From the NCBI GenBank assembly GCA_963810915.1, contig CAWEPH010000004.1:67788-131787 (forward strand): 64,000 nt of DNA. Reading direction: 5' to 3'. The position numbers were made by a program, and so were the translations under genes. Shown piece by piece: positions 1,666 to 48,317 of this stretch. The notes beneath the pieces were generated by a model. That model was not told the DNA's origin. It did no database searches and was given only the letters and a program-made list of their open reading frames with translations. Origin of the DNA: an uncultured Actinomycetes bacterium. GTDB lineage: Bacteria > Actinomycetota > UBA4738 > HRBIN12. How positions within the stretch are numbered: the first letter of the stretch is position 1; every line of letters starts with the position of its first letter.

Positions 1666-2837
1666 GTTCGGATGCCGCCGCGTATCGCGGCCCCGACGAG
1701 GATCTGCCGCTCTCGATCGAGCCGGTCATCGGGTGGCGGGTCTGGCGCCTTGTGCGGCGCCAGGGGGTCCTCACGCTGACGGCGATAACCGCGCAGGAGC
1801 CGTGGCCCCCCAAGGAGGTGGTGCACGCGACATGCCGGCGTCTCACGACCCATCCTGCTCCCGTGCCCAACTGCTCCTGCGGGCTGTACGCGGCGAGCTC
1901 GCCGAACGATCTCGCGCACGCGGGGGTTTATGGCTACGCCGATGTCTGCGTCGTGGGCGCGATCGCGATGTGGGGCACGGTCGTAGAGCACGCCCGTGGC
2001 GCGCGCTCCGCGAAGGCCTATCCCGCGCGGCTCGCACTCGTCTGTGGCCCGTGCCTGCGCGTGGGCCTCGTCACATCTCCCTCGATCGTGGTGGGTGAAG
2101 CGGGGCCGCTGACGGCCCTCTGCCACTTCCATCAACGGCGTGACCGACGGCCGGGCCGACCTGCGGAGGAGATCCAAGCGGAGCTGCTCGATGCCTACGG
2201 GGTCGAGCCGCTGCCCCGTTCGCGGATCGCACGCCGCCCGTTCCGGCCCCAGGTCTCACCCACGCGGCTGGTGGAGCTGGCGGCGACACTCGTGGTCGGC
2301 CTCTTCAAGCTCGCCTTCTTCCTGTTCATGGTTCCCATCGTGATCGGCGGACTCGTGGTGCTCTTGGCGCTCTTCCTGCAGGTGGTAACGCTCGGACGCT
2401 TCGGCCAGGCGCCCGTGGATCCGGTGGTCTCGCCGCCCGCGGTCATCGCCGGGGTCGATGCGCTGAGGCCCGAGGCGCCCGCGGCGCCCGGACCTTCAGC
2501 GGTATCGCCGATGCGGGGTATCGCGACGTCGCATACGAGGTCACTGAGCAGGCCGCCCCCCGAGATCGCGTTCCTCTGCGGCATCGGTCGGGGTCACGCG
2601 GTGGAGCTCGTCCAGTGCGGTGATCGGGCTTCGGACCTCATCGGCCTCGCCCAACGCGCGTCGCCACACGGACGGGAAGCGGACTGCATCGACATGACGG
2701 ACGCGTACTCCCGCGGCGCGCACTTCTGGGTCTGTTGGACGACCTTCGAGCACGCCGACGTACGTCCGTGGGCGTCCACGCCTAACCCGTTCCTCGTCCC
2801 CGCTTCCGAAGGAGGAGCCGCCCATGGAGATCGGTGA
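1662..2837 (+). CDS. hypothetical protein: N-terminal Cys/His-motif domain (GWRVWR...HATC...CSCGLYA) plus 2 TM helices
   Basis: A GTG at 1662 overlaps the upstream TGA (GTGA), and the tracked ORF frame 1587-2837 is the same frame. Motifs read: WRVWRL, C-x13-CSCGLYA, VVGAIAMWGTVVEH. TM stretch LVVGLFKLAFFLFMVPIVIGGLVVLLALFL. I do not recognise a characterised family. Confidence 0.55.
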   Translation: MSSDAAAYRGPDEDLPLSIEPVIGWRVWRLVRRQGVLTLTAITAQEPWPPKEVVHATCRRLTTHPAPVPNCSCGLYAASSPNDLAHAGVYGYADVCVVGAIAMWGTVVEHARGARSAKAYPARLALVCGPCLRVGLVTSPSIVVGEAGPLTALCHFHQRRDRRPGRPAEEIQAELLDAYGVEPLPRSRIARRPFRPQVSPTRLVELAATLVVGLFKLAFFLFMVPIVIGGLVVLLALFLQVVTLGRFGQAPVDPVVSPPAVIAGVDALRPEAPAAPGPSAVSPMRGIATSHTRSLSRPPPEIAFLCGIGRGHAVELVQCGDRASDLIGLAQRASPHGREADCIDMTDAYSRGAHFWVCWTTFEHADVRPWASTPNPFLVPASEGGAAHGDR

Positions 2838-2979
2838 ACCCAAAGAGGTCCGAGAGATCGAGCCGATCACCGTCCCGGTCCCGGAGCCGATCGCGGTGCC
2901 GCACCCTGCACCGGAGCCGACCGCGCCGATTCCAGACCCCACGACGTACTGTCGTCTCAACCGAGTGCCGCAGGTTTGA
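2824..2979 (+). CDS. small Pro/Glu-rich ORF (51 aa), candidate micro-protein
   Basis: ATG at 2824 follows GAAGGAGGA (2808-2816) with 8-nt spacing. Translation: MEIGEPKEVREIEPITVPVPEPIAVPHPAPEPTAPIPDPTTYCRLNRVPQV. Overlaps the upstream stop by 14 nt. Too short to appear in the ORF track. Confidence 0.35.
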   Translation: MEIGEPKEVREIEPITVPVPEPIAVPHPAPEPTAPIPDPTTYCRLNRVPQV

Positions 2980-3022
2980 TCACTGCCGCGGCACCTCTGT
3001 GTCTCGGTCCTATGTGACCGAG

Positions 3023-4348
3023 CTACGCATCCTCGTCCTCGGTAGATTCCTCCTCGGGCGCCGGGCAGCAGCGATACTCCTGTGACTGGTCCAGCAACTC
3101 GATCTGCCGTTTGAGGAGCTTGTTCTCGAGCTCGAGTCGATCGAGGTCGAGGTGGATCTTGCGATGCAGCTCGGGTTCGCAGACTTCGCAATCATCCAGG
3201 CATCCCTTGACGATCACACCCGCGGTCGGCAGCGACGCGGTCCGCTCGAATTCGATCTCTGTCTTGATCGCCTCTGAGGGGAGGCCGCTCTTCTTGTCGA
3301 GGAGCCCCGCGTCGACGAGGGCGCTGTCCACTTCCGCGATCGCTGCGTCGCGAACGTCGGGCGGCAGGGGTGAGCCGCCGATCTGGAAAGCCACGCCCTC
3401 GAACGCGACGGCGAACCGCGCACGACCGGCCTGCGCGTACTGCGCCACGCTTTGCAGCCCGCGCGCCTCGACCTCGAGGCGAGCCGTGTTGGTGGCCGGA
3501 ACCTCTTGGGGCAGCGACGCGATCCCTCCGACCGATCGGACCGGATTGGCGAGAACCGGCGTTGGGGCTACGGGGTCGATCACCCGCCGGTCGATCGAGA
3601 TCAACTCGAACTTGACCGTCTCGCACTTGTTGATCCGGTAGAAGTAGAAGCTGAGCGCGTGGCACTGGTTCTGGTTGGTGAACTCACGCGAGGACGCCTC
3701 GAAGTGATCCTCGGATTCACCTTCTTGGTGTGAGCGCGTCGAGACCTCCCCGATCGAGAGCGCGTGAGCCTTCCGGGTCGCCTCGACGGACATGTGGTCG
3801 GCCATCGATGCATGGGCGCTGTGCTCGCGGAGGTAGTCCGCGGTGGACGAGGCGTTGTGGCTGCCGTGGGCGTTCGCGTCCGCGCTCGCGGAGAGGAAGC
3901 CGATCCCTCCGCTCGCGTCGCCGTGGAAGTCCCATGAGCCCTGATCCGTGCTGCGGCTCGACCCGTTGTCGGTGCTGCTTTGGTCGGACATCGCTGCCCT
4001 GAACGAGGACATCCGATACTGCTCCTCCGACATCTGCTCGCTGCGGTAACTCAGGTTGCTTTCGCTGTCGAAGCTGAATCGGCTCCGTCGGTCCGTCGTC
4101 GCCAGGCGCACTTTCTCGCCGGGTAAGAGGGTCGTGGTGTAGATCGGATCACCGAGTGCCAGCGGACCCGAGCAGCGGGTGAACCGCGTGTGGAGCGTGA
4201 CCTCCACGGTGAGTGGTTGTTCGTTCGGCCCGCGCAGCGATGTCGGGAAGACGAGTCGGCGACGCATCTCCATCACGTCGCACGGCGGGCATTCCTCCAG
4301 CGTGGGACAACAAGGCACCTCTTGGACATCCGTGGCGGTCTCAGCCAT
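3023..4348 (-). CDS. orphan protein with Cys clusters at both termini, Ser/His/Asp-rich centre and C-terminal coiled coil
   Basis: 441-aa ORF with SD GGGAGGAG upstream of its ATG. N-terminus CCPTLEECPPC; C-terminus CLDDCEVCEPE...LDRLELENKLLKRQIELLDQSQEYRCCP. More A/T-ending codons than its neighbours. No family recognised. Confidence 0.6.
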   Translation of the reverse strand: MAETATDVQEVPCCPTLEECPPCDVMEMRRRLVFPTSLRGPNEQPLTVEVTLHTRFTRCSGPLALGDPIYTTTLLPGEKVRLATTDRRSRFSFDSESNLSYRSEQMSEEQYRMSSFRAAMSDQSSTDNGSSRSTDQGSWDFHGDASGGIGFLSASADANAHGSHNASSTADYLREHSAHASMADHMSVEATRKAHALSIGEVSTRSHQEGESEDHFEASSREFTNQNQCHALSFYFYRINKCETVKFELISIDRRVIDPVAPTPVLANPVRSVGGIASLPQEVPATNTARLEVEARGLQSVAQYAQAGRARFAVAFEGVAFQIGGSPLPPDVRDAAIAEVDSALVDAGLLDKKSGLPSEAIKTEIEFERTASLPTAGVIVKGCLDDCEVCEPELHRKIHLDLDRLELENKLLKRQIELLDQSQEYRCCPAPEEESTEDEDA

Positions 4349-4473
4349 GGCCCGCTCCTCCCAACGTCATTTCCCGAGACTCAACCGTGCGCCACCTCCG
4401 TCACCATCGCGTCAACGCGACGTCACGACGGAGCTCGCGTAACGAAGATCGACTCAGGGAACGACGTCCTACC

Positions 4474-5649
4474 TCACCAGGTGACGGTATCGGTGGGCAG
4501 CGGAGGTGGAGCTGCCACGACGCCGCTCAGGAGTTGGTTGTAGAGACGATCGAACTTGAGCTTCGCGGGATGCACGGTCTCCATGTCGTAGCTACTCGCA
4601 TCCGAGGAGCTCATCGTTCTATCCGCGACGCTCGCCCAATTGCTGTCGGAGATGACCGTAGAGCGCAGAGCCTCTTCGAGCGCGAGGGTCGCTTCACGGG
4701 CCGCGGGGGGGACATCCCACCCTTCGACGGTGGCCAACAGCTTCGAACGGCCTTCCTGCAGTCGGCGCAGCGCATCGGCGTCCCCAGCGCTGATCGCCGC
4801 CCGGACCTGCGTGAGCTGCTGGCCCGATGTCTGCACGAGGTCGTGGGCTGTCCAGAGATAGTCGTGCAGAGTCGAGGCATGAGGCTCGGGAGTCGGAGGT
4901 GACCCGCGATGTCGGAGCGCGAGGACTGCTCCACTGACAGCGAGCGCCGCGATGACGCCGCCGATGACGAGGGATCGCACCCTGTGAGGCGGCTTCGAGA
5001 CCGGCGAAGGGGGTGGCGAGGCGACGTGGGGTGAGGGAGCGACCGCGCGGCCGTGGGTCTCGCCGCCCTCGCGTCGGGTCGCCATCCCCCGATCGTCGAT
5101 CCCGTCCAACGTCGCGACCAGCTTCGCGACACCCGCATCCCAGTCGTCCGTGATCGCGAGAGCTTGGATCGCCGGGAGGGATTTGATGGCGACGGGAAGT
5201 TCATCCCTCGGGGGCACGTGGGCGCCCTGAAGCAACGTGGGGATGACGACCAATCGCTCCCGCAGGGCGGCCTCGATCTCCAGACGCACGGGATCCACGG
5301 GGTTCGTCAGCCGACGCTGCCCATCGACGTCCTCGAGGGTGAGCCAATGGGGACCGATCAACGCGATGAGGACATCGCAATGGCTGACGGCGCGATCGAC
5401 GACGTCCTCCCAAAGCTGTCCGGGCGCGATGTTGTCCAGATCCATGAAGACCTGGTCCTTGCCGTAGCGCTCACCGAGCACGGTCTTGAGCGCTCGGGCG
5501 AAACCGGCACTGTCCTCGCGCCGATAGCAGACGAAGATACGCAGTCCCGGATCGTGGGTCGATCGAACACGCGTGTCACGGCGCTTCATGATGGCTGGTC
5601 CAGTTCCCTTCCGCTGAACCCCTCCGGGTGTGTAGCCGACCTCCGTCAC
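4474..5649 (-). CDS. TIR domain protein, single-pass membrane-anchored, with about 140-aa helical non-cytoplasmic C-terminal domain
   Basis: TIR_2-type N-terminus RIFVCYRREDSAGFARAL...VFMDLDNI..G..W...V..A...CDVLIALIG..W...DPVRLEIEAAL. TM helix VIGGVIAALAVSGAVLAL. Alternative start is the ATG at 5589 (MKRRDTRV). Confidence 0.8.
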   Translation of the reverse strand: MTEVGYTPGGVQRKGTGPAIMKRRDTRVRSTHDPGLRIFVCYRREDSAGFARALKTVLGERYGKDQVFMDLDNIAPGQLWEDVVDRAVSHCDVLIALIGPHWLTLEDVDGQRRLTNPVDPVRLEIEAALRERLVVIPTLLQGAHVPPRDELPVAIKSLPAIQALAITDDWDAGVAKLVATLDGIDDRGMATRREGGETHGRAVAPSPHVASPPPSPVSKPPHRVRSLVIGGVIAALAVSGAVLALRHRGSPPTPEPHASTLHDYLWTAHDLVQTSGQQLTQVRAAISAGDADALRRLQEGRSKLLATVEGWDVPPAAREATLALEEALRSTVISDSNWASVADRTMSSSDASSYDMETVHPAKLKFDRLYNQLLSGVVAAPPPLPTDTVTW

Positions 5650-5798
5650 CGCACCATCACCGACGCGTCACCGTGGTGAGCGACGGGAGTGGCCAGTCGT
5701 CAGTTCGAGGTCCCCCATGCAGCCGATAGGACGACGCGCCCATGAGGGTCAGAGTGGGTTGACCGTCCGCGGTCAGACGCGCACGACGAGGCAACGCC

Positions 5799-6791
5799 AT
5801 GCCAGGCAGCGGCATCTTCATCAGCTACCGGCGGGACGACTCGGCCGGGTTCGCGGGCCGGCTCTACGACCGGCTCGCCGAGCGGTTCGGCGCGGCCCGC
5901 GTCTTCATGGATATCGACGCGATCGCGCCGGGCCACGAGTTCGCGACCGATATCGAGAAGGCGCTCAGCGACTGCACGGCGTGCGTCGTGTTGATCGGCC
6001 GAGATTGGCTGACGATCACGGATGAGGACGGTCGACGGCGGCTCGACGATCCCACCGACTTCGTCCGGCTGGAGGTGGCGACCGCGATCCGACGTGGGAT
6101 CACGGTGTTCCCGGTCCTGGTGGACAAGGCGAAGCCGCCGTCATCGGCAGCGCTGCCGGACGAGATCCGTCCTCTGGCGGGACGACAGGCGATCGAACTC
6201 ACGAACGAGCGCTGGAACTACGACGTGGGCCGGCTCCTGCTGGCCCTCGAGAAGGAGGTCGGCCGACGGAACCCTGATCGCAGAGGCCGAGAGGGCCCTC
6301 TCGTCGCGGCGGGGTCGTCGCGCTACGTGGTCGATCGCGGCTGGGTGGATGGCCCTTGCCATCGCAGGCGTGACGGCTGGGTTGGCGACCCGGTCGGATG
6401 GGCCTCCACCTCCGGATCGGCATCCGCCAGCGGGTCCGGACAATCTCGTCGCCGCGCCACTGAACGGGAACTACGACGTCACCGTGGAGCTCCGAGCACG
6501 TCGCGGGACGCTGCTGATGAGGACAACCTTTGGGGCGAACCCGATCCCCAGGCGAGGGAGACACGGGGACGGATGGTCATCCCAGATCTGGACCTCCGAG
6601 TCGGGATCGTGGACCGTGATAGGAAGAACATAGCGGGAACTTGGTCGGACCTCGACGGGCGCTACATCGGTCCAAGGCGAGGCGGAGTGACGTGCGGACT
6701 CCAGGGAGTGCGGACGTCACGCGGACGTTTACGTCAGCCGAGACGCGATTCCTCAACGGAGCGCCCTCACACACCTTCGGCGGCATCCTGA
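5799..6791 (+). pseudogene. second TIR domain gene, apparently frameshifted after the TIR domain (TM segment lies in another frame)
   Basis: Intact TIR part: GIFISYRRDDSAGFAGRLYDRL...VFMDIDAI...CVVLIGRDWL...DFVRLEVATAI (5799 to about 6250). The expected TM helix WSIAAGWMALAIAGVTAGLA is encoded in the 6022-6633 frame. Further protein-like text (DVTRTFTSAETRFLNGAPSHTFGGILTIHWD) sits in a third frame, 6641-6868. Confidence 0.6.
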
Positions 6792-7515
6792 CGATCCATT
6801 GGGACATGCGCAGCGAACCGAGCCCGTGGATCGCACGTTCCACGTCGACGGGACGGCGACGCGGCTGAGCGCTCAGGCGCTCGCGTCGCTCGGAGGGTCC
6901 TCCGGTACGGCTCCCGTCGCCCGCGTCCAGGTACTTGCGGACCTCGCGATCCTCTTGCTCGCTGTCTTCCGGCTTCTCCTGGACGATCCGCGTGAGGTAG
7001 ACCTCGACGTCGCGGCGCACGATCTCTTCCACCTTGGTGGCGAACAACGGGAAGACCCGCTCGTGGAAGTCGTGACGATGCTGATACTGCTTGTAGCGAC
7101 CGCCGCCCTCGATGAAGAGCCAACCCTCGGTCTTCAGCAGCTCCGCCGTGCGCCGGAAGTGCCGCCACCGTTCCCCGTAGTGGAAGAAGCCGTCGAGCCC
7201 CACCGCGGCGGCGACCATCAGGCTGACGACGAACGTCGTCGGCTTCACCCATTCCCATAGCTCGTTGCTGTTGGCCGGGGGACTCAACGAGACCAGGGCG
7301 GGCACGAGCACGCCACCGGTGATCGCGATCACACGGAGCGCGGCGTACCTCCGGTTGGCGTCTCGGGCTCGTCCGTCGAACCAGAGCACCTGATCGAGCC
7401 ATCGGTCCCTCATCCACTCCTTCTTGTCCTCGTGCATGGCCAGCATCTGGATCGCGCGCAGCAGCCGATCTCGGGTGGTTCCGCCGGTCGTCGCGGGGAT
7501 CTCCGTGTCGCTCAT
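6577..7515 (-). CDS. DUF4231 / SLATT-family 2TM protein
   Basis: Start ATG at 7515 (MSDTEIP). Pattern read: WLDQVLWFDGRARDANRRYAALRVIAITGGVLVPALV ... TTFVVSLMVAAAVGLDGFF..ERWRHFRRTAELLKTEGWLFIEGGGRY, which fits the DUF4231/SLATT layout. The last about 100 codons look non-coding (Arg/Pro-rich), so the 3' end is uncertain. Confidence 0.65.
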   Translation of the reverse strand: MSDTEIPATTGGTTRDRLLRAIQMLAMHEDKKEWMRDRWLDQVLWFDGRARDANRRYAALRVIAITGGVLVPALVSLSPPANSNELWEWVKPTTFVVSLMVAAAVGLDGFFHYGERWRHFRRTAELLKTEGWLFIEGGGRYKQYQHRHDFHERVFPLFATKVEEIVRRDVEVYLTRIVQEKPEDSEQEDREVRKYLDAGDGSRTGGPSERRERLSAQPRRRPVDVERAIHGLGSLRMSQWIVRMPPKVCEGAPLRNRVSADVNVRVTSALPGVRTSLRLALDRCSARRGPTKFPLCSSYHGPRSRLGGPDLG

Positions 7516-7600
7516 CGCGAAGCCATCTCCCCTCTTCCGCTGCGACCGAACGTACGCCCGGTATCCGGCCGGTGCAACGCGAGCGTATGCTGAGCCCGCC

Positions 7601-9163
7601 ATGGCAACGGCGGTGGGACGGGTACCCGTGCGTCTGCGCATCGGCGTCACGGGACATCGCTCGCTTCCCGACGAGCAGGCGATCGCCGCCCGCGTCGACG
7701 AGGTCCTCGGGCGGCTGCAGCGGATGCTCCCTGCGAGCCCCACGACGCCCGTCCTGTTCGAGGTCGTGTCGCCCTTGGGCGAAGGGGCCGACCGCATCGT
7801 CGCCGAGCGCGTGCTGCGGATCCCTGACGCGATCATGGAGGCACCGTTGCCGCTGACGCCGGCGGACTACGAGCGGGACTTCGCGTCCGCGGACTCGCGG
7901 GAGCGGTTCGCCTCGCTGTTGGAGCGAGCCGAGCGGGTGTGGGTCGTGGGCGATCACGACCGGCTCGACGCGTATCGCGTCACCGGCAACTACGTGGTGG
8001 ACAGCTGCGACGTGCTCATCGCCGTCTGGGACGGGTTGCCCTCCCGCGGCCCGGGCGGCACCGCGGACGTCGTTGATCGGGCACAGGATCAGGCGATGCC
8101 GATGTTCCGGATAGGCTCGGATCCCCCGTTCGACATCCAAGACCCGCCGATCCCCATCGCACCGCATCTGATCGAGGAGATCGAACGCTTCAACGATGCC
8201 GATGCGCCCGCCTCGCTCGGCACGCCGCGGCTGGTGCCCTCACAGACCACGCCGTCCGGGGCAGAGGAGACCCGGCTCCGGACGTGCTTGGAGTGGGTGG
8301 AGCCCCAACACCGTCGCGCCGCCGCGATCGCGAACCGGGCCCGCCGTCGCTTCACGTGGGGGAGCCGAGCGCTCTTCCTCCTGTCCGCGTTCGCCCTCCT
8401 CGCCGCCGCCCTCTCCGTGACATCTGAGGGTGAGGAGATGGAGCGGCGGTTCGCCTACGTCGAGGTCGCGTTGATCGTGGTGGCTCTGGCTCTTTGGCTC
8501 CTGGTCCGGCACCGGTTGCACGACCGATGGATCACGTCGAGGTTCCTGACCGAGCGCCTGCGCTCAGCCGGGTTCCTCGCGTTCGCGGGAGAGCGAACCG
8601 GCATCGGCTCGACGCCCGAGGGCGAACGCGGTGAGGCGTCCCAGGAGTGGATCACCCGCGTCTGCCGAGAGGTGTGGCGCACACGCCCTCGGATCGGCGA
8701 CGCCGATCGGTCGCTCGATGACGTGAAGGCGATGCTGATCGTGGACTGGGTGCATCGACAGCAGACCTACTACGAAGCGCGCGCGAGGGACCATCTGGTC
8801 ACATCCAGGTTCCTCCTGGTCGCCGGCGCCATCCTGTTCGCCGGCACGATCGTGGCGGCCACGATGCACGCATCGGGGCTGGTGGGGGACCGGCTCTCGC
8901 ATGCGGTGGTGGTGCTCACGATCGCGTTGCCGGCGTTCGCGGGCGCGCTGGCGGGCATCGCGGGCTTGGAATTGCATGCACGACACGCGGCTCGGTTCCG
9001 TTCGATGGCACGACGCCTCGCCGACCTGCAGGACCGCCTCGCCTCGGCTGCCGGGATGGGCGCCGTTCGAGCCATCGCGTACAGGGTCGAGGCCGAGCTG
9101 CGGACGGAGGGGGAAGCCTGGATCGACGTGATGCGGTTCCAGGACGTGGAGCTTCCGTCCTGA
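7601..9163 (+). CDS. SLOG-like Rossmannoid domain fused to C-terminal 4-TM SLATT-like module
   Basis: ATG at 7601. N-terminal domain: RIGVTGHRSL, SPLGEGADRIVAERVL, LIAVWDGLPSRGPGGTADVVDRA (YpsA/LOG/DprA-like motifs). C-terminal half has two 2TM units, each followed by an R..(A/T)ER/ARH helix. QQTYYEARARDH...LLVAGAILFAGTIVAA...VVVLTIALPAFAGALAGIAGL resembles SLATT_4/5-type domains. Confidence 0.6.
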   Translation: MATAVGRVPVRLRIGVTGHRSLPDEQAIAARVDEVLGRLQRMLPASPTTPVLFEVVSPLGEGADRIVAERVLRIPDAIMEAPLPLTPADYERDFASADSRERFASLLERAERVWVVGDHDRLDAYRVTGNYVVDSCDVLIAVWDGLPSRGPGGTADVVDRAQDQAMPMFRIGSDPPFDIQDPPIPIAPHLIEEIERFNDADAPASLGTPRLVPSQTTPSGAEETRLRTCLEWVEPQHRRAAAIANRARRRFTWGSRALFLLSAFALLAAALSVTSEGEEMERRFAYVEVALIVVALALWLLVRHRLHDRWITSRFLTERLRSAGFLAFAGERTGIGSTPEGERGEASQEWITRVCREVWRTRPRIGDADRSLDDVKAMLIVDWVHRQQTYYEARARDHLVTSRFLLVAGAILFAGTIVAATMHASGLVGDRLSHAVVVLTIALPAFAGALAGIAGLELHARHAARFRSMARRLADLQDRLASAAGMGAVRAIAYRVEAELRTEGEAWIDVMRFQDVELPS

Positions 9164-9208
9164 CGCCGACGTGAACGGAGGCCGAAGGCATCCGCGATCG
9201 GCGACCGC

Positions 9209-9237
9209 GTGACGCAGCCGTGACGCTCGAGTGACGG
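9209..9237 (+). promoter_or_regulatory. three direct heptads GTGACGC / GTGACGC / GTGACGG at exact 11-bp phasing (SARP-box-like)
   Basis: Heptads start at 9209, 9220 and 9231. They lie 62 nt upstream of the peptidase ATG (9299). The same core with the same phasing occurs at 12823-12851 on the other strand. Confidence 0.5.
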
Positions 9238-9298
9238 CCCGGGAGTACCCCGATGTCGATCGAGCGATCGTTGTTGGGGAAGACTGGAGGTAGCAACC

Positions 9299-10117
9299 AT
9301 GGCTGGACGACGGCTCGCCGCTGATGCCCCCGAGCGGAGTGCTAGCGACCTCACCGGACCACATCTGCTGGGCCGCGTCTTCATCCCGGATCCCAGGGAC
9401 TGGTCGCTGGGTCGACTCATGGAGGTCGCCGAGCCGGCGGAGTCGATCTTGCAACAGACGGTCGAGCAGGTGATGGAGACCACCGACTACTTCTCCGATT
9501 GGCGGTCGTACCTGGTCTTCTGGCGGTGGCTGAAGCGCCATCGCCAACCGCCCGAGAAGAAGGACGTCACGCCGCCATGGGAACTCGAGGTCCAGCTGGA
9601 TCAGGGGCAGACCAACCATTGCGTGGGATTCGGGTGGGCGGGCTGGGGCGACGCGGCCCCGGTGAAGGACGTGTTCCAGAACACCGACGCGCACGCTATC
9701 TACTACGAGTGCAAGACCATCGATGGGCAACCTCACGGTGAGAATGGGTCGACGGTCCGTTCCGGAGCGCTGGCGATGCGCACCAGGGGTCGGCTGGCCG
9801 CGTTCGCCTTCGCAACGTCGACGGCCGAGATCAACCAGTGGATCGATGCACATGGTCCGGTCGTCGTCGGCACCACGTGGACGAACGACATGTTCGCTCC
9901 GGATGCGAACGGGTACATCGAACCGACGGGTGGGCCCGCCGGCGGGCACTGCTACCTGATGCTGGACCGGATCGATGAAGAGGACGCATACCTGTTCCAG
10001 AACTCCTGGGGCGGCAACTGGGGTCTGGATGGTCGGTTCAAGATGAAGCGGACCGACTTCGAGGCGCTCCTTGCGGACTTCGGCGAGGCGTGCTGCGCCG
10101 CAGAATTGACGTTGTAG
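9299..10117 (+). CDS. papain-like cysteine peptidase (family C1), no signal peptide
   Basis: Catalytic motifs in order: QGQTNHCVGFG (Gln-6/Cys), GGHCYLMLD (His), FQNSWGGNWGLDG (Asn-Ser-Trp). Confidence 0.8.
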   Translation: MAGRRLAADAPERSASDLTGPHLLGRVFIPDPRDWSLGRLMEVAEPAESILQQTVEQVMETTDYFSDWRSYLVFWRWLKRHRQPPEKKDVTPPWELEVQLDQGQTNHCVGFGWAGWGDAAPVKDVFQNTDAHAIYYECKTIDGQPHGENGSTVRSGALAMRTRGRLAAFAFATSTAEINQWIDAHGPVVVGTTWTNDMFAPDANGYIEPTGGPAGGHCYLMLDRIDEEDAYLFQNSWGGNWGLDGRFKMKRTDFEALLADFGEACCAAELTL

Positions 10118-10140
10118 CGGAACCGTCGCATCGTCGTCGG

Positions 10141-10464
10141 ATGGTGGACGTCTCCTTGGCAGCTGCCGATTCGGGCAGCGTTCGATCCGTCCACGTGGGG
10201 GACGTCATCGTCGTCTCGCTGGAAGAGAGTCCCACGTCGGGCTTCCGCTGGGATGTGGACGCGTTGACGCCCTGCCTCGGTGCGGCCGGAGATACGTTCG
10301 TTCCAGCGCCCGACGCTCAGCTTGGAGGTGGTGGAACCCGGCTCCTCCGCTTCGAAGCCCGAACGGTCGGAGAGGGCCCCATCGCGCTCCGACTTTGGCG
10401 GTCCTGGGAAGGAGACGCTTCCATCGTCGAGCGCTTCGCCGCGACGATCGCCATCCAGCCATGA
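10141..10464 (+). CDS. chagasin-family (I42) cysteine peptidase inhibitor
   Basis: All three chagasin loops can be read: ESPTSGFRW (NPTTGY/FxW loop), QLGGGGTRLLRF (GxGG loop), LWRSWEG (RPW loop). ATG at 10141 (MVDVSLAA); the tracked ORF begins at 10090. Confidence 0.75.
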   Translation: MVDVSLAAADSGSVRSVHVGDVIVVSLEESPTSGFRWDVDALTPCLGAAGDTFVPAPDAQLGGGGTRLLRFEARTVGEGPIALRLWRSWEGDASIVERFAATIAIQP

Positions 10465-10494
10465 TCCCGGACACGAGCCGGTGACGATCGAGCG

Positions 10495-11163
10495 TCAGGT
10501 CTCGAGCCGGCCGTACTCCACCAGCCACTGGAGCTCGGGCGCGCGCTCGAAGATCGCGACCCCTCCTCGCGATGGCCGCGCTCCGATCTGCATGTTGTCG
10601 TCCACCACCATCGTGATGTCGTCGGCGTGAGGCCACGCTCCGTTGCGATCGGAGAAGTGGTAGAAGATGAAGTCGCCGGAGAGGGTGTCGTCTGGCTCGT
10701 GGAACGTCTTCACCCGGCTATCGGTGCGGATCCCGTCCGATAGGTGGGGTAACGCGATGTCGCGCACCTCCTGCACGGCGCGGACCACCAAACCCGAACA
10801 GTCACCGTCCGGCGGGAAGATGTGACCGAAGACGTACTTCTCGCCCAGGTGCTTCTTCGCGGCGGTCACGAGTGGCGATTCATCCCTGTCGTCGCGGACG
10901 ATGCGCACCGCCACGCCGGGTTCGTCGTAGTTCGAGCCCCCGATCACGACCTTGTCGCCGAACGAGCCGGCGACCAGCTGTTCCTCGAGCATCTTCATGA
11001 TCTGTGGCCTGGGATGTTCCTCCTTCAGGTGCCCGTGGAAGTGGTACGGCGGCGCGATCAGCAGCAACTTCGCTCGGGCGCTCTCGATCGCCTCATCGAG
11101 TTCCTGACCCGGATCGTGGAACCCCGTCCCAAAGGTCGTCACCTGGTACTGCTTGCCGCTCAT
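10495..11163 (-). CDS. NlpC/P60 (C40) domain protein with unknown N-terminal half, no signal peptide
   Basis: C-terminal GDCSGLVVRAV ... LSGDFIFYH ... WPHADDITMVV fits the Cys-His-His NlpC/P60 order. Lies 59 nt downstream of the peroxidase gene on the same strand. Confidence 0.7.
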   Translation of the reverse strand: MSGKQYQVTTFGTGFHDPGQELDEAIESARAKLLLIAPPYHFHGHLKEEHPRPQIMKMLEEQLVAGSFGDKVVIGGSNYDEPGVAVRIVRDDRDESPLVTAAKKHLGEKYVFGHIFPPDGDCSGLVVRAVQEVRDIALPHLSDGIRTDSRVKTFHEPDDTLSGDFIFYHFSDRNGAWPHADDITMVVDDNMQIGARPSRGGVAIFERAPELQWLVEYGRLET

Positions 11164-11222
11164 GCCAGTTCACTCCTTTCCCAGTCGCCCCGATCGTCGT
11201 CGCATCGCCGGCGCGTCTCTCG

Positions 11223-12773
11223 TCACCCGAGCGGCGCGAGCAGGGACTTCTTCCCCTCGAAGGCGAAGAGCAACAGGTCGACCATCCGGAACGTCGTCTC
11301 GTCGGGACCGAGTGTCGGGCGCCATGTCGGGTTCCGGACGATCGACGTCTGGCTGCCCTCCATCGCTCGGTGGAAGGTCTCGGCGACGATCCGCGCACCG
11401 ACGCCCTTCAGCTTCCCCTGGTTGAGCTCCGCCTCACGAAGGATGTAGAACCACAACGGCGTGTTCGCGATCACCGCGTCCCGCTGCTGGGCGGCGAGTC
11501 CGTCGAGCACCGCCCCGTTGTTCCCGTCTCGCACCTGCGCGCTGGTGAGCTTGGTCAAGGCCACGCCTTTGTTCTTCAGGAACGTAGCCATCTGTTGTCC
11601 GGTGGCGAGCTTCACCATCCTCGCCCGCGTCAGGTTGCGGAACGCGAGGTTGTCCTCGTCGGGCGCGAACCCGGGGAGGTGTGCCAACGGGTTGGATAGC
11701 TTCGTGTCGATCCGCATGGCCCGGTTGGACTTGGCGGCGGGCACGATGAGGCCGGGCTTGCCGGCGTCGCCGAAGTCGTAGAGCCTCCGGAAGTCCGCGA
11801 TCCACGTGCTCGGGAGACGCGGATCGCCCAGGAAGTCACCGCTGAGTCCCGAGAACGCGAACAGCAGGTCGAGGGACCCGGCGCCGTTGTCGAAGACGGC
11901 GTTCCAGTTGTAGGCCGCTCGGACCATCGAGTGCCCGAGCCGGTACGCCGCCACCGAGAACTCGATCGGCATCGTGGGGACGTCGGTCGGACTCACCCCC
12001 ACCTCGAACGCCTTCCTCCCGTGAGCGAAGACGTCGTTCACGACGCTCGCCGCGCAGATCCGGGGCAGGAAGTCGGTGCGGAGCATCCACTGGTAGTGCC
12101 TGGTGACGACCCTGCGGGCCCGGGCGAAGGCCTGGCTGGGCGGCACGGACGCAGGCAGCGTGTCGACGACACGGTTGTGGAAGCGGATGAGGGCGAGGTG
12201 CGTCTGGGCGACGGCGAGGTTCTCGTCGTTCCGTGGATCCGGGATGATCGCCGTGCGCTTCTCCGCCGGCGTCGTGCCCTCGCCGCGGGGAAGATCGAAC
12301 CCGACCATCACAGAGAGCCCATCGGCGGCAACCGTCTTGCCCATCTTGAGGTGAAGACCGTCGGCCTCGTAGAACTTCGCCGACTCGGGCTCCGTGGGCC
12401 CGGCACCGTAGAGGGAGTCGAGATCGAGACTCGGCGAGCGTCCCTGCAGGAGATCCGCGGGCGAGATGTTCTGGCCGAGCATGACGCTCGTCCTGTCGAA
12501 GGTGAGGTCGTGGTCGGCGAACTGACCGAGGTACGTGAAGCCCGCCGGGATCGTCGATTCCCCGCCGCCGGCCGAGACCATGGCGTTGCCGAGTGCCTTG
12601 CGATTCGCATCGCTCAGCTGGCGGTCGACCCCCCTCGGCCCCATCCTGCTGAAGCGGAACGGCGGGATCTGGGCCTCCAGGGCGGCCGTCAAGGTTCGCT
12701 CCCGGCCTCCGACGCTCTCCCCGAGCAGTCCTTCACCGATGACGAAGTAGCTCTCGGAACCATGCCGTTCCAC
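11223..12773 (-). CDS. haem peroxidase of the peroxidase-cyclooxygenase (animal haem peroxidase) superfamily
   Basis: LGQFADHDLTFD (distal His), LIRFHNRVV (REHN-like), SVAAYRLGHSMV (proximal His), LWFYILREAE. Confidence 0.8.
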   Translation of the reverse strand: MERHGSESYFVIGEGLLGESVGGRERTLTAALEAQIPPFRFSRMGPRGVDRQLSDANRKALGNAMVSAGGGESTIPAGFTYLGQFADHDLTFDRTSVMLGQNISPADLLQGRSPSLDLDSLYGAGPTEPESAKFYEADGLHLKMGKTVAADGLSVMVGFDLPRGEGTTPAEKRTAIIPDPRNDENLAVAQTHLALIRFHNRVVDTLPASVPPSQAFARARRVVTRHYQWMLRTDFLPRICAASVVNDVFAHGRKAFEVGVSPTDVPTMPIEFSVAAYRLGHSMVRAAYNWNAVFDNGAGSLDLLFAFSGLSGDFLGDPRLPSTWIADFRRLYDFGDAGKPGLIVPAAKSNRAMRIDTKLSNPLAHLPGFAPDEDNLAFRNLTRARMVKLATGQQMATFLKNKGVALTKLTSAQVRDGNNGAVLDGLAAQQRDAVIANTPLWFYILREAELNQGKLKGVGARIVAETFHRAMEGSQTSIVRNPTWRPTLGPDETTFRMVDLLLFAFEGKKSLLAPLG

Positions 12774-12822
12774 GGTCGCTCCTATCCGGGTCGCTCGTCT
12801 CTCACGTGAACGTCGCCGCCGT

Positions 12823-12851
12823 CCGTCACCGCATCGTCACCGGCCCATCAC
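12823..12851 (-). promoter_or_regulatory. three direct heptads GTGATGG / GTGACGA / GTGACGG at 11-bp phasing (SARP-box-like), upstream of the peroxidase operon
   Basis: Read on the minus strand: GGTGATGGGCCGGTGACGATGCGGTGACGG. Heptad starts are 12851, 12840 and 12829. They sit about 50 nt upstream of the ATG at 12773 and directly downstream of the SARP gene stop. Confidence 0.5.
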
Positions 12852-12888
12852 CTCGGGGCGTCCAGCGGTACCGGTCGGATCCCGAGGG

Positions 12889-13803
12889 CTATCCGTCGAA
12901 CGCGGTCACGAGCTCCTTCATCAGGGCAGAGGGAGCCAGCTGGAGTTCGTCCGCGAGCAGCCTCCGGTACCACTCGTACTGGCGGATGGCGCTCACCGTG
13001 TTGCCTTCGGCGAGATACACCCCGATCAGCGCGCGGTGGGCGCTCTCTCTGAGGGGTTCCGCGGCGACGGCCGCCAACGCCGCCTCCACGGCTTCGGCAT
13101 ACATGCCCGCTGCGACCAGACGTTCGCTCAGACGCTCGAGCGCGTGCAGCCGGAGTTGCAGCAACCTCTCGCGCTCGAAGAGTGCCCACTCGTCGTACCA
13201 ATCCGGGAGCAGCGCACCGTCGAGCTGCAGGAGCTTGAGCTCGTCCGACTCGAAGGCACCGGAGGATCCGAGGATCGTGCGCGCCACGCCGGTCGCCTCT
13301 CTGTGGTCGACCTGGACGCGCGGGTCGAGCCAGGCGTGATCGACGGACGCGCTGACGAGGGTGAGGCCCAGCCTATGCAGGCGCCACAACGCCGAGCGGA
13401 GGCTCGCCGATGCCCGCTTCTCGGACACGTCGGGCCAACACGAGGATGCAACGAAGCAGCGTGAAAGCGAGCGATCGTGCACGGCGAGGAACGCCACCAC
13501 TCGTTGCGCACTCGTAGGGATCTCCACCGCACGTGCGTCGGCGGAGAGTTCGAAGCCTCCCAGCAGGCAGAGACGAAATGTCGGCTCTCTGGAAGCACCG
13601 GTCTGGAGCCGCTCGCTGGCCACCGATGGTTCGCCGCGAACCTTGAGCCCCATGAGCGCCCTCCCGGCATGACCCGAGGAGTAGCAGCTGGATCCTTGGT
13701 CGAACCCATCCTTCGGGTCAACCCGGAGGCTAGTGAAGGTGCTCTTCCAGGCATAGTGGGATATCCGACCATCACCCGTTCGACCGACTGGGAGAGGGCG
13801 CAT
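12889..13803 (-). CDS. SARP/AfsR-type regulator (OmpR-like winged helix + BTAD domain)
   Basis: FRLCLLGGFELS...VEIPTSAQRVVAFLAV (wHTH). DWYDEWALFERERLLQLRLHALERLSERLVAAGMYAEAVEAALAAVAAEPLRESAHRALIGVYLAEGN...AIRQYEWYRRLLADELQLAPS (BTAD). Start uncertain; alternative ATG at 13653. Confidence 0.75.
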   Translation of the reverse strand: MRPLPVGRTGDGRISHYAWKSTFTSLRVDPKDGFDQGSSCYSSGHAGRALMGLKVRGEPSVASERLQTGASREPTFRLCLLGGFELSADARAVEIPTSAQRVVAFLAVHDRSLSRCFVASSCWPDVSEKRASASLRSALWRLHRLGLTLVSASVDHAWLDPRVQVDHREATGVARTILGSSGAFESDELKLLQLDGALLPDWYDEWALFERERLLQLRLHALERLSERLVAAGMYAEAVEAALAAVAAEPLRESAHRALIGVYLAEGNTVSAIRQYEWYRRLLADELQLAPSALMKELVTAFDG

Positions 13804-13860
13804 CTACCCGAAGCGGCGGCGCCCGCTCGTCGGGTTCTTTCGGAGCAGGTGAGGCCGCGG

Positions 13861-15999
13861 TCAGTAATCGTCTCCCTTAACGTAGGTCCGCGTCGCGGTG
13901 TTCGCCTTCACGCGCGTCGGGCGCATCATCTCGTTGTCCTCGTGGTCGATGATGTGGCAGTGCCAGACGTATCCGTGCCCACCGTCGGGGTCGAAGGGAT
14001 ATGACGCCTTCGCGGGGCGGGCATCCGCCGGAAGGTCGGTCGGCGCCCAGCGCACGACGATCCGCGTGACATGGCCGGGAGGCATCATGACGGTGTCCTT
14101 CCAACCGGCCTCATTCGCCGCCGGAGGCAAGGGGGAGCGCCTGAGGAACGGCCCGACATCGGGGTTGCCCCCGAGGGCTCTCGGATTGCCGTTGCGATAG
14201 TGGAGCGGCGGGCCGAACCCCGGCTGGTACACGCCACCCGGGAACGCGTGTTCGTAGACCGCCGCGTACCTGTCCACGTCGAAGGCCTGCCGGTTCATGA
14301 GCTGGAACTGAACCAGGTGTAAGTGCATCGGATGTGCGTCCGCCGTCAGGTTGACGATCTCCCAGAGCTCGGTGTCGCCCTCGTGGGGGAGCTCTGAGTA
14401 ATAGGTCGTGACCCCGCCGACGGTGATCGCCGTGAAGTCGGGCCGAGGCGTGCCGGGCAGCTCCGTGTTGTTCACCAGGATCTCGAGCGGCCCGCCCTCG
14501 TACTCGACATCACCGACGATCGACGGTCCGCCGATGACCTCATTGAGCGTCAATTGGCGGGTCTTCCGAACCTTCACATCGCTGGCCTTCCTCCCTGCGA
14601 CCGGGTCGACCAGTCTCACCATCGGCCTGCGAAGGGGGCGCCCGCTTGCCGGGTCATAACTCGTGTCCCGGCCCGTCGGAGGCACCACCCGGAACTCCAT
14701 GATCCTCCCGGTCGTGTGGCCGTTCGGAGCCTCTCCGCCCGGATAGGGAGCCCTCGCGCTGTTCCGGAGGAGCAGTCGGGTCCCGGGTGAGAGGCCATGG
14801 AAATCGACGATCACGTCGGCGCGCTCGCCCGGCATGATGAGCAATCGCTGGAGCCGGCCCTTCGGCGCGTTGGGATCGATCTTGACGGGTACGTCGAGGT
14901 AGCCTCCGTCGGTGCCGATCTGCCACATCGCCGGCCCCTCGATCTTCGACTCCCGATCGACGAAGAACATCTCGTAACCACGCGCGTTCGAGCCGTTCAA
15001 GAAGAGGAAGCGGTAACGCTTCGGTTCGACTTCGAGGTGCGGCCAGACCTTACCGTTGACCGCGATCGTGTCGCCTAGGAACTCGGGGACCCAGAAGGGG
15101 TGCTCGGGATTGGGGATGAACGGGATCCCCGCCGGGAAGTAGAGCTGCCCGTTCGTGTCGAACATGCGGTCCTGGACGACGAGTGGGATCGGCGCCGGAA
15201 GGTTCGCGGGCGGCGGATCCGCCGGATCCGTGATGAGGTAAGCGCCCGCGAGGCCGGCGTAGACGTTGAGGCGGGTCAGGCCGAGGGCGTGGTCGTGGAA
15301 CCAGATGGGGGCCGCCTGTTGTGTGTTCGGGTACCGGTATACGGCATGGCTCTTCGGAGAGAGACCGTCCCTGCTGTAGTAAGCATGACCCGTGTACGCC
15401 CCGTCGCTCGAGAACCAGGAGTCGGGCCCACCGTCGATGAGGGGGGGTACCTCACCACCGTGGAGGTGAGGGGTGGCCACGACGGGACCTCGGTAGTGCT
15501 CGGCGCAGGAGCCGGTCGGCGGCTGGGCGGGCTCAACGCTCTCGGCGCAGGCGTTCGCCTCGTCGTTCAGCGGGTCGGCCCAATGCATCGTCTGGTCGGT
15601 GGCGTCTGTCCAGGCGCGAACCTTGGTACCTCCTGTTGTGCCCAAGTCGTTGATCCACCTGATCTCCGTCGGCGTTCCCCGCCGGGCGACGATCACGGGA
15701 CCCAGGTAGGACGCCCTCGTCCGCTGACCTCGCTGGAGGTATCCCCAGACCCACGTCTTCGGGAAGCCCGTCGGCAAGACCTGAGCTAGGAACTCGGTCA
15801 TCTTGAGGTCGATCCGACTCGTGCCCGCGACCACGACGTCGAGAGCTGGGAGCGCGTCGACGAACTGCCGGATCGATCGGCCGGCCATCGGGATCTGTCG
15901 AGCTGCAGGCACGGTCTCGGACCAGGCGAAGCGCGGCAGGGCGATCAAGCCGGCTCCTGCGAGTGCGCCACCTGTGAGGAAGCGGCGTCGGGTGATCAT
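13861..15999 (-). CDS. Tat-exported multicopper oxidase
   Basis: Twin-arginine signal MITRRRFLTGGALAGAGLIAL. Copper motifs HLHGG, WFHDHALG, HPMHLHL, WHCHIIDHEDNEMM. Confidence 0.85.
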   Translation of the reverse strand: MITRRRFLTGGALAGAGLIALPRFAWSETVPAARQIPMAGRSIRQFVDALPALDVVVAGTSRIDLKMTEFLAQVLPTGFPKTWVWGYLQRGQRTRASYLGPVIVARRGTPTEIRWINDLGTTGGTKVRAWTDATDQTMHWADPLNDEANACAESVEPAQPPTGSCAEHYRGPVVATPHLHGGEVPPLIDGGPDSWFSSDGAYTGHAYYSRDGLSPKSHAVYRYPNTQQAAPIWFHDHALGLTRLNVYAGLAGAYLITDPADPPPANLPAPIPLVVQDRMFDTNGQLYFPAGIPFIPNPEHPFWVPEFLGDTIAVNGKVWPHLEVEPKRYRFLFLNGSNARGYEMFFVDRESKIEGPAMWQIGTDGGYLDVPVKIDPNAPKGRLQRLLIMPGERADVIVDFHGLSPGTRLLLRNSARAPYPGGEAPNGHTTGRIMEFRVVPPTGRDTSYDPASGRPLRRPMVRLVDPVAGRKASDVKVRKTRQLTLNEVIGGPSIVGDVEYEGGPLEILVNNTELPGTPRPDFTAITVGGVTTYYSELPHEGDTELWEIVNLTADAHPMHLHLVQFQLMNRQAFDVDRYAAVYEHAFPGGVYQPGFGPPLHYRNGNPRALGGNPDVGPFLRRSPLPPAANEAGWKDTVMMPPGHVTRIVVRWAPTDLPADARPAKASYPFDPDGGHGYVWHCHIIDHEDNEMMRPTRVKANTATRTYVKGDDY

Positions 16000-16284
16000 C
16001 GTGGCTCCCTTCTGACATTCTCGTGGCGCCCATCACGGGCGGCGCACCGTCCCGTCCACCCTTGTTCGCCATTCGTAGCCCGGCTCCGCATACTTCCGAA
16101 GGGGAGAAAGGCCTGAGTCCGCTGGGGCTTCCAGCGTCAGTCGGCGGTCGGGGATCCTGAGCGACAGGCTCGCCGTGAGGTCGCCACTCCTGCCGCCCTC
16201 GAACCAGGTTGTGATTCTTGAATGCTCCCGGATCAGGCCAACCGGTCGCAGAGACCGACGGGCATCATGCAATCGCATCAGGTT

Positions 16285-17100
16285 CCCTGCCGTATCGTCG
16301 CGCCCAAGGCGAGCGACGGGAGGTCGAATGATGCGACTGGACGGCAAGGTTGCTCTCATCACGGGCGGCACCTCTGGGATCGGCGAGGCGACCGCCGTGT
16401 TGTTCGCCGCCGAAGGTGCGAACGTCGCGATCACCGGCCGCAGCCAGGAGCGCGGCGACGCGGTAGCCGAGCGGATCGCATCCGCCGGCGGTGAGGCGAT
16501 CTTCGTGCGTGGCGACGTGGGGTCAGCCGATGAGTGCCGACGCTCGGTCGATCGCACGATGGAGGCGTTCGGTCGCATCGACGTGCTCTTCAACAATGCC
16601 GGCGTCTACGTCGCCAACGACACCCTCGGCTGCTCCGAGGACGAGTGGGACGCGCAGGTCGACACGAGCCTGAAGGGGGCGTTCTTGATGTCGAAGTACG
16701 CGCTGCCGCACATGATCGAGCAGGGTTCGGGCTCGATCATCCACTGCGCGTCCGGATGGGGGCTCGTCGGCGGCGCCCGCGCCGTCGCCTACTGTGCGGC
16801 GAAGGGCGGCATGGTCGTGATGACGAAGGCGATGGCGATCGATCACGGACCGCAGGGCATCCGTGTGAACGCGGTATGCCCCGGCGACACCGACACGCCC
16901 ATGGAACACGAAGACGCCCGGCAGCAGGGCCTGGAGTGGGACGCGTACGTGCGCAGCGCGGTGGCCGGTCGCGCGATCGAGCGCATGGCCACACCCGAGG
17001 AGATCGCCCGCGCCGTGCTCTTCCTCGCGAGCGACGATTCCTCGTACATCACGGGAACGGCTCTGCCCGTCGATGGCGGGGGCGTTGCCGATTGAACGCC
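16285..17100 (+). repeat. segmental duplication copy A (about 816 bp, includes the intact SDR gene)
   Basis: Hand alignment with 32016-32830: shared from CCCTGCCGTATCGTCGC to TTGAACGCC, with only a handful of substitutions and small indels. Confidence 0.85.
16328..17095 (+). CDS. short-chain dehydrogenase/reductase (SDR)
   Basis: [22 protein letters not shown] (TGxxxGIG), NNAG, S...YCAAKGG catalytic Tyr-x3-Lys. ATG at 16328 lies inside the longer tracked ORF. Confidence 0.85.
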   Translation: MMRLDGKVALITGGTSGIGEATAVLFAAEGANVAITGRSQERGDAVAERIASAGGEAIFVRGDVGSADECRRSVDRTMEAFGRIDVLFNNAGVYVANDTLGCSEDEWDAQVDTSLKGAFLMSKYALPHMIEQGSGSIIHCASGWGLVGGARAVAYCAAKGGMVVMTKAMAIDHGPQGIRVNAVCPGDTDTPMEHEDARQQGLEWDAYVRSAVAGRAIERMATPEEIARAVLFLASDDSSYITGTALPVDGGGVAD

Positions 17101-25384: not shown

Positions 25385-25436
25385 GCGAAGCAGGGTAGTG
25401 CGTCACCCCTTCGTTACGCCACCGTCTCGAGGAAGG

Positions 25437-34092: not shown

Positions 34093-34193
34093 GACGTGGA
34101 CCTTAGATGATGCGGGTCACCGAACGGAATCCGGTCCGAATCTCCCGCTGCCCCTTCCGGCGGCCGGGACACCCCGTCTACACTCGGCCCACC

Positions 34194-48214: not shown

Positions 48215-48317
48215 GAGTCGAGGCCGCGCGACGAAGCAGGGGGCGCTGCCTCGAGGAAAGGCCGTCGATGCAACTCGTCATCGGCTAGCTTGCGGGTCGA
48301 CGACTCCGTAGGCTGAC

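Follow-up and report, generated by a model that had tools for sequence, protein, structure and literature searches.

In a 64-kb stretch of DNA from an uncultured soil actinobacterium (contig CAWEPH010000004.1, positions 67,788 to 131,787; referred to below, at its full length, as the window), four promoters carry boxes of three GTGACG-type heptads in direct repeat at 11-bp phase. As judged from the sequence, these boxes, here named A to D, are very probably the operators of a small regulator of the SARP (Streptomyces antibiotic regulatory protein) family, 254 amino acids long, that is encoded beside them. This assignment draws on the sites themselves, their non-random occurrence, the geometry of the promoters, the fold of the regulator, and the co-occurrence of box and regulator throughout the clade to which the regulator belongs. 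An earlier sequence-only reading of the region had proposed that a SARP controls two operons through such repeats; that reading is supported by the present analysis, and proved incomplete rather than wrong.

Four triple-heptad boxes next to a SARP gene

The two arrays that had originally been reported, with heptads starting at 9209, 9220 and 9231 on the plus strand and at 12851, 12840 and 12829 on the minus strand, agree exactly with a read-out of the sequence. Their last heptads end 61 nt before the ATG at 9299 and 49 nt before the GTG at 12773, close to the start codons as had been claimed, and the second array does lie 38 bp from the SARP gene, the stop codon of which is at 12889 while the first base of the array is 12851. 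Although both arrays are real, the inventory was short by two, those at 5671-5643 and 4426-4398 on the minus strand. The full set is given below, with scores from a 47-bp weight matrix.

Box A, 4398..4426, minus strand: GTGACGT-N4-TTGACGC-N4-GTGACGG; 8-bp spacer to CACGGT (4389-4384); 49 nt to ATG 4348; 30.6 bits; one mismatch (TTGACG, middle heptad)
Box B, 5643..5671, minus strand: GTGACGC-N4-GTGATGG-N4-GTGACGG; 8-bp spacer to TACACA (5634-5629); 53 nt to ATG 5589; 38.0 bits; exact
Box C, 9209..9237, plus strand: GTGACGC-N4-GTGACGC-N4-GTGACGG; 8-bp spacer to TACCCC (9246-9251); 61 nt to ATG 9299; 32.8 bits; exact
Box D, 12823..12851, minus strand: GTGATGG-N4-GTGACGA-N4-GTGACGG; 8-bp spacer to GACGTT (12814-12809); 49 nt to GTG 12773; 37.7 bits; exact

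All four boxes are intergenic and face the gene that follows, whose start codon comes 49-61 nt after the end of the box. On their own strand they share one layout, namely heptad, 4 nt, heptad, 4 nt, GTGACGG, 8 nt, and the hexamer NACNNN, and a leader of 30-45 nt with a purine-rich Shine-Dalgarno stretch separates this hexamer from the start codon. The SARP-type promoter geometry that had been suggested is therefore present, with heptads at 11-bp phase and the third of them 8 bp from a -10-like hexamer. A generic scan of positions 2800-16300 found no -35/-10 pair of the sigma-70 type, which fits the expectation for promoters that depend on an activator.

The occurrence of the boxes was assessed by scanning the window for the pattern GTGAYG-N5-GTGAYG-N5-GTGAYG, with 100 dinucleotide shuffles as the control. 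Three exact triples were found, as opposed to none in the shuffles, and five when up to two mismatches were allowed, where 0.09 would be expected. The weight matrix was trained without the window and without its duplicate locus (L101), and on this matrix from other loci boxes A to D score 30.6-38.0 bits, while the next-best position in the window reaches 16.3 and the shuffle maximum is 15.2.

That the repeats arose by chance, or are non-regulatory traces (a motif derived from codons, for instance, or pieces of a repeat element), is extremely improbable. The lone GTGAYG hexamer is indeed frequent, with 118 single copies in this DNA of 69% G+C. However, the shuffles yielded no triple at all; the six GTGAYG pairs at 11-bp phase all lie inside the three exact triples, whereas no pair at 10 or 12 bp phase occurs in the window. 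Moreover, the sites are intergenic and oriented to genes, their flanks have nothing in common beyond the heptads and the -10 position, and the box is conserved in phylogenetic footprints.

A fifth candidate, at 25400-25428 on the minus strand (GAGACGG..GTAACGA..GTGACGC), scored 16.3 bits, has no NANNNT at spacer 8, and was set aside as a probable chance match. This degenerate site stands upstream of an open reading frame (ORF) with a cyclase domain at 24551-25402 on the minus strand.

The adjacent regulator is a small SARP

The gene that ends beside box D encodes the presumed binder of all four boxes:

12889..13653, minus strand: small SARP of 254 aa, made up of an OmpR-type winged helix and, after it, a BTAD domain

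The ORF had first been read as 12889-13803. Its start is rather the ATG at 13653, since homologues of 254 aa cover the shorter protein end to end, aligning from M51 (MGLKVRG...) of the longer frame, and the start at 13803 was dropped.

That the neighbour is a true small SARP, as the sequence-only reading had it, is borne out by its BTAD domain, its sequence similarity to AfsR, and its fold. Pfam places the BTAD domain (PF03704, E 1.1e-16) at residues 196-298 of the long ORF, and with phmmer residues 26-248 match the SARP domain of AfsR in 8HVR (E 2.7e-6); Trans_reg_C of Pfam did not reach E 0.01 in this protein. In the AlphaFold2 model (pLDDT 85), a unit of beta-sheet and three helices spans residues 26-115 and is followed by a helical bundle at residues 116-250, corresponding to BTAD. 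The best Foldseek matches of the model are AfsR within transcription initiation complexes (8K60, 8HVR) and EmbR (2FF4, 2FEZ), with TM-scores of 0.71-0.73 over 242-252 aligned columns. The protein and its sites thus combine the features of the family, namely an N-terminal OmpR-type winged helix, BTAD after it, heptad repeats of 11 bp, and 8 bp to the -10. A typical but non-defining feature, control of a secondary-metabolite cluster, to which EmbR and AfsR also form exceptions, was not seen, as no polyketide synthase, nonribosomal peptide synthetase or tailoring genes lie nearby.

On the strand of the SARP gene, and 207 nt upstream of it, stands a multicopper oxidase gene (13861-15999, minus strand) that has no box and whose product carries a twin-arginine signal (MITRRRFLTGGALAGAG...).

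Box and regulator occur together in sister loci

Loci were collected solely on the ground that they encode a homologue of the SARP (44-92% identity), which gave 101 sequences totalling 880 kb. Eleven of the loci came from species-representative genomes, all of them metagenome-assembled and labelled Thermoleophilaceae, Actinomycetota or Actinomycetes; 80 loci came from metagenomes, and about ten from look-ups of the exact protein. The clade itself numbers thousands of homologues, mostly from uncultured soil Actinomycetota.

The 880 kb contain 27 GTGACG triples at 11-bp phase without a mismatch, 21 with one mismatch and 38 with two, against 0, 0 and 0.2 in shuffles. At least one site of at least 22 bits on the 47-bp matrix is present in 69 of 100 loci. 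Of the 92 sites at that threshold, 67 (73%) are no more than 500 bp away from the SARP gene, although only 19% of the DNA is that close to it. Many of the loci are contigs of 1-3 kb that hold little besides the SARP gene. In roughly ten sister loci the box precedes the SARP gene or its operon.

The promoter geometry is shared as well. Among 72 non-redundant sites, the hexamer NANNNT, which played no part in site selection, follows at spacer 8 in 44 cases and at spacer 9 in 11 cases, while the other offsets from 4 to 12 account for 0-2 each. When five box-driven peptidase promoters were aligned (that of box C in the window and four others), the GTGA cores were invariant whereas the spacers and leaders diverged.

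The possibility was considered that the boxes are bound by another winged-helix regulator of the OmpR/PhoB type, for instance one like PhoP or GlnR, and that the SARP is merely a neighbour. Activators of that class also use 11-bp-phased direct repeats near, or in place of, the -35, and geometry alone does not tell SARPs from them. AfsR is itself treated alongside the master phosphate regulator in the introduction of PMC10936776. Yet the loci were chosen by SARP homology only, and despite many short contigs the box is present at the frequency and proximity given above; the box drives the SARP gene itself in about ten loci; and no response-regulator gene recurs in the neighbourhoods of the SARP homologues. 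We therefore consider it improbable that a different regulator is the binder, and the adjacent SARP remains the preferred one.

Besides this overlap in geometry, three observations weigh against the assignment. The SARP gene of the window has no box of its own, in contrast to the ten or so sister loci mentioned, which also speaks for a different regulator; two of the four -10 candidates in the window (TACACA and TACCCC) lack a T at position 6; and the peroxidase homologues of two relatives (L013 and L016) lack a box of their own.

Two further arrangements were noted. In the seven loci with the more distant SARPs (L005-L011, 44-51% identical), arrays of GTGACC, GTGACA or GTGACG share the 11-bp phase and are placed just upstream of the SARP gene in L005, L006 and L010 and just downstream of it in L007, L008, L009 and L011; they score on the opposite strand too, because GTGAC resembles GTCAC. 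These arrays suggest autoregulation and a slightly shifted specificity. In addition, back-to-back divergent boxes serve opposite operons in L019 (817-881, 7 bp apart), L094 (9879-9954, 18 bp apart) and L022 (4266-4396, 73 bp apart), an example being the two Peptidase_C1 genes in L019 and L020.

A model for activation at the boxes

The model that we infer from these observations extends to physical binding, the number of protomers on each box, their contacts, activation rather than repression, and an inducing signal. SARP protomers would bind head-to-tail on successive heptads, on one face of the helix as set by the 11-bp phase, and the third heptad would place the last of them 8 bp before the weak -10 hexamer (NACNNN in the window, NANNNT across the clade at large). 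Were transcription to begin about 7 nt past the hexamer, heptads 3, 2 and 1 would lie at about -27 to -21, -38 to -32 and -49 to -43. By analogy with AfsR at the afsS promoter, the array would replace the missing -35 element and recruit RNA polymerase.

For AfsR, the activator geometry at a fixed 8 bp from a weak -10 has been solved, and the protomers touch sigma region 4, the beta flap, the zinc-binding domain of beta' and the alpha subunit's C-terminal domain (PMC10936776). On the same analogy, heptads 2 and 3 would correspond to the upstream and downstream repeats of the AfsR complex, with two protomers side by side, and a third protomer would sit on heptad 1, further upstream. The units that would be switched on in this manner are protein A (described below), a TIR protein, a peptidase with its inhibitor, and a haem peroxidase with an NlpC/P60 hydrolase.

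A SARP that binds the boxes but represses, or merely modulates, promoters driven by other means is an improbable alternative. The boxes overlap the expected -35 position, and a few SARPs, such as Atr32 and FarR4, have been reported as repressors (PMC10972967). However, no recognisable -35/-10 promoter is there to be repressed, and the fixed 8 bp to a weak -10 is the geometry of AfsR as an activator (PMC10936776). Activation by the SARP is thus the mode favoured here.

Putative target genes of the window

The genes that follow the boxes are:

3023..4348, minus strand (box A): protein A, 441 aa, cysteine-rich; homologues are box-driven in L022 and L098
4474..5589, minus strand (box B): TIR_2 protein, 371 aa (Pfam TIR_2, 6.2e-13), with a strongly hydrophobic segment near residue 206
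9299..10117, plus strand (box C, gene 1): papain-like cysteine peptidase, Peptidase_C1 (Pfam 1.1e-5; PHROG peptidase family 2.4e-28), no signal peptide
10141..10464, plus strand (box C, gene 2, same operon): chagasin-type Inhibitor_I42 (Pfam 1.8e-17)
11223..12773, minus strand (box D, gene 1): protein of the animal haem peroxidase family (Pfam An_peroxidase, 4.1e-17), no signal peptide
10495..11163, minus strand (box D, gene 2): NlpC/P60 cysteine peptidase or cell-wall hydrolase (Pfam NLPC_P60, 5.9e-7), no signal peptide

The idea of a compact regulon therefore stands in so far as the boxes front enzyme operons, but its extent has to be revised, from two promoters and four enzymes to four promoters and seven genes. 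The products were also correctly described as having no recognisable export signal: hydropathy finds no N-terminal hydrophobic signal in the target proteins, in contrast to the clear twin-arginine leader of the multicopper oxidase.

Protein A is 64-70% identical to proteins of Rhodanobacter, Thiomonas, Acidobacteria and Chloroflexi, and has invariant CCP motifs near both termini together with six further invariant cysteines. It has no match in Pfam, NCBIfam, PHROG or PADLOC. Its AlphaFold2 model (pLDDT 64.5) contains long beta-hairpins, and a fold search of the PDB returned only matches with E > 0.1 and TM-scores below 0.12, a non-significant scatter of beta-pore-forming toxins. In Rhodanobacter, the gene follows a sigma-54 activator and precedes genes for a 729-aa protein and a calpain-type peptidase; the 729-aa family is itself box-driven in L072.

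The hydrophobic segment of the 371-aa TIR protein is possibly membrane-spanning. Homologues of the Peptidase_C1 protein are box-driven in L012, L019, L021 and L074, and the Inhibitor_I42 protein encoded after it is presumed to be its self-protection partner; in L101, a gene of 107 aa is called at the place of the inhibitor. The NlpC/P60 gene begins 59 nt past the stop codon of the peroxidase gene. The peroxidase, intact at 516 aa in the window, is called as two ORFs of 190 and 287 aa in L101 (11044-12431; the same locus, ENA ERZ25039502), a split that could be an assembly frameshift or a strain-level inactivation.

Boxes were also looked for upstream of the SARP gene, the multicopper oxidase gene, a second TIR gene, and two SLATT genes (DUF4231/SLATT_3 and SLATT_1), and none was found. 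The trio of TIR_2, DUF4231/SLATT_3 and SLATT_1 genes stands by the SARP gene both in the window (5799-9163) and in L019 (4715-8074; SARP 69% identical); the trio has no box, yet the paralogous TIR gene at 4474-5589 has one. Scans of the island proteins with PADLOC, NCBIfam and PHROG revealed no known defence system. In PADLOC, the two TIR proteins show a weak, generic ThsB-like TIR similarity (1e-5 to 3e-9) and the other eight proteins have no match.

Further along the window are three large cyclase paralogues, at 25437-29171 (minus strand), 34107-37544 (plus) and 48312-51509 (plus), in each of which zinc ribbons at the N-terminus are combined with an adenylate/guanylate cyclase domain and an AAA_16 ATPase. 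TPR repeats are detected by Pfam in the first two and not in that at 48312-51509. The short ORF at 24551-25402 (minus strand), mentioned above, is a fourth with a cyclase domain.

Boxes elsewhere and a possible link to contractile injection systems

The boxes of the sister loci point to a wider regulon. In a Pfam census of the 85 proteins encoded directly downstream of boxes in all loci, the most frequent domains were BTAD (9), Phage_sheath_1 (7), Phage_sheath_1C (6), Phage_T4_gp19 (5), Peptidase_C1 (4), eCIS_core (3) and Pvc16_N (3); T4_baseplate occurred once, as did Patatin, Peptidase_M10, TIR_2, An_peroxidase, NLPC_P60 and SLATT_4. A separate all-against-all BLASTP of proteins encoded after boxes gave groups of 11 sheath, 10 SARP, 8 small proteins of about 75 aa, and 5 peptidases, counts that take in truncated ORFs and, as a reference, the unboxed SARP gene of the window. 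Protein A (in the window, L022 and L098) and a protein of about 745 aa are further recurrent families. Several of these domains belong to contractile injection systems (CIS), and the box precedes CIS operons, a finding that concerns the clade and not the source genome: the first genes after boxes include seven for sheath proteins, and tube, eCIS_core and Pvc16_N genes follow.

A tblastn census of all loci found the small protein in 38, the sheath in 22 and the tube in 13, and in 22 sister loci the SARP homologue lies beside CIS structural genes. The small protein (M..ERTGxLVxRAWxE...LRARIT) is encoded directly after the SARP gene in its 38 loci, for instance at 820-1032 of L063, 1975-2202 of L002 and 4549-4779 of L088, all on the plus strand; in eight cases its gene is preceded by a box that overlaps the 3' end of the SARP gene, an arrangement that resembles afsR-afsS.

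BTAD has been recorded as a 'shell' domain of extracellular contractile injection systems (eCIS), that is, as a putative regulator, by gene association at the level of domains (Geller et al. 2021, PMC8213781). The SARP clade is in large part this class of BTAD regulators beside eCIS loci. Literature searches for a link of SARPs to SLATT/TIR, to CIS or to GTGACG repeats returned nothing relevant beyond that study.

Together, the box before sheath, tube and baseplate operons of CIS and eCIS in sister loci and the lack of export signals in the products raise the possibility that the window regulon consists of CIS-linked effectors, or of effectors of cell death and antagonism with a self-protection inhibitor, that are co-regulated with machinery encoded elsewhere. 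The attachment of the SARP clade to CIS would offer a possible explanation for products that have no export signal of their own. This reading is tentative, and it meets two difficulties. The link to CIS is indirect, in that homologues of sheath, tube and the small 75-aa protein are absent from the window by tblastn; Pfam likewise detects no CIS gene among ten sampled ORFs between 19.7 and 63.6 kb. Furthermore, the closest SARP homologues (57-70% identity) adjoin peptidases and other enzymes rather than CIS genes, among them Peptidase_C1 with Inhibitor_I42, An_peroxidase, Patatin, SIR2, Peptidase_M4 with Emfourin, Peptidase_M10, Peptidase_C14, and the same TIR/SLATT trio. In L050, homologues of the peptidase and the inhibitor are found together with a CIS within about 15 kb.

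A second functional reading, slightly less favoured and likewise in doubt, is that no CIS is involved, and that the genes form an intracellular arsenal for suicide, defence or autolysis within a TIR/SLATT conflict island, the SARP being a stress-responsive switch. The boxes do stand among TIR_2, SLATT_1 and DUF4231/SLATT_3 genes, the trio of which also flanks the 69% identical SARP of L019; Patatin, SIR2, Peptidase_C14, and Peptidase_M4 with Emfourin are encoded in related neighbourhoods; and products without export signals would suit such a role as well. Conversely, boxes are missing from the SLATT genes and from the second TIR gene, PADLOC reports generic TIR similarity only and no known defence system, and the commonest structural targets in the wider clade are CIS genes. 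The choice between these functional readings leaves the regulatory conclusion unaffected.

A broader proposition is that the SARP clade with its GTGACG box is the master switch of CIS in uncultured soil Actinomycetota, and that the box also marks unlinked genes for payloads and cell-death effectors. This is rather unlikely as it stands. Were it true, the window would be an effector island wired into the CIS regulon from a distance, with the chagasin-type inhibitor as immunity protein to the papain-like protease, and the effector repertoire of actinobacterial CIS could be read from genomes by a simple motif scan.

Relation to known systems

While the mechanism of SARPs and the neighbourhood of BTAD genes and eCIS are already known, a full-text literature search did not find the GTGACG heptad coupled with SARPs. 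What appears to be new is the specificity for this heptad, its sharing across a clade with canonical spacing, and a four-promoter regulon of toxin-like enzymes without signals. SARPs have been studied almost entirely as switches of antibiotic clusters in Streptomyces; here, a large clade is defined from its genes and sites alone, and its regulon comprises injection machines that resemble phage tails, proteases together with their cognate inhibitors, TIR proteins and further toxin-like enzymes. The box supplies a candidate operator for a class of regulators formerly tied to eCIS by gene neighbourhood only, and a motif with which genomes can be scanned for unlinked effector and immunity genes. 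The window also offers a compact system of four promoters in which the control of a small SARP that lacks sensor domains can be studied. Above all, the results open the regulation of actinobacterial injection systems, and their repertoire of effectors, to direct testing.

The closest parallel in mechanism is AfsR at the afsS promoter of Streptomyces coelicolor (8HVR, 8K60). Both proteins have the same two-domain fold (TM-score 0.71-0.73), both act or would act at direct repeats of 11-bp phase that overlap or replace the -35, and 8 bp separate the 3' repeat from a weak -10 (PMC10936776). The -10 of afsS is CACTGT (PMC10936776), which is similar to the CACGGT of box A. Unlike the window boxes, with their three GTGACGN heptads, the AfsR site has two 11-bp repeats of different sequence; in addition, the sequence identity of AfsR to the window SARP is 21-25%, and the targets here are toxin-like enzymes, not afsS.

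The pathway-specific small SARPs of Streptomyces use heptads of TCGAG type. DnrI, ActII-ORF4, VlmI, FdmR1 and PimR are known to have sites of three heptads separated by 4-nt spacers, and these regulators resemble the window SARP in being small and in having three heptads upstream of several operons around the regulator gene (PMC10972967). They differ in belonging to antibiotic clusters in Streptomyces, whereas here the heptad is GTGACG, the DNA comes from an uncultured actinobacterium of soil, and the targets include no biosynthetic genes.

EmbR of Mycobacterium tuberculosis (2FEZ, 2FF4) shares the SARP fold, with TM-scores of 0.71-0.73 when normalised to the query and 0.51-0.52 on the greater length of EmbR, and is likewise a SARP that regulates non-antibiotic genes. 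EmbR has an FHA domain in addition and is under the control of Ser/Thr phosphorylation; the window SARP contains no such module. The PHO boxes of PhoP and PhoB, with repeat units of 11 nt, are alike in that winged-helix activators use direct repeats of one helical turn to replace the -35; their regulators are receiver-domain response regulators with a different repeat sequence, and nothing ties one to these loci.

Finally, the BTAD genes of eCIS loci (PMC8213781) are matched by the sister-locus SARPs that lie directly beside sheath, tube, baseplate, eCIS_core and Pvc16 genes. The regulator and boxes of the window differ from them in having no CIS gene within 64 kb. Furthermore, whereas that earlier work described no binding site or regulon, the cis-element is defined here.

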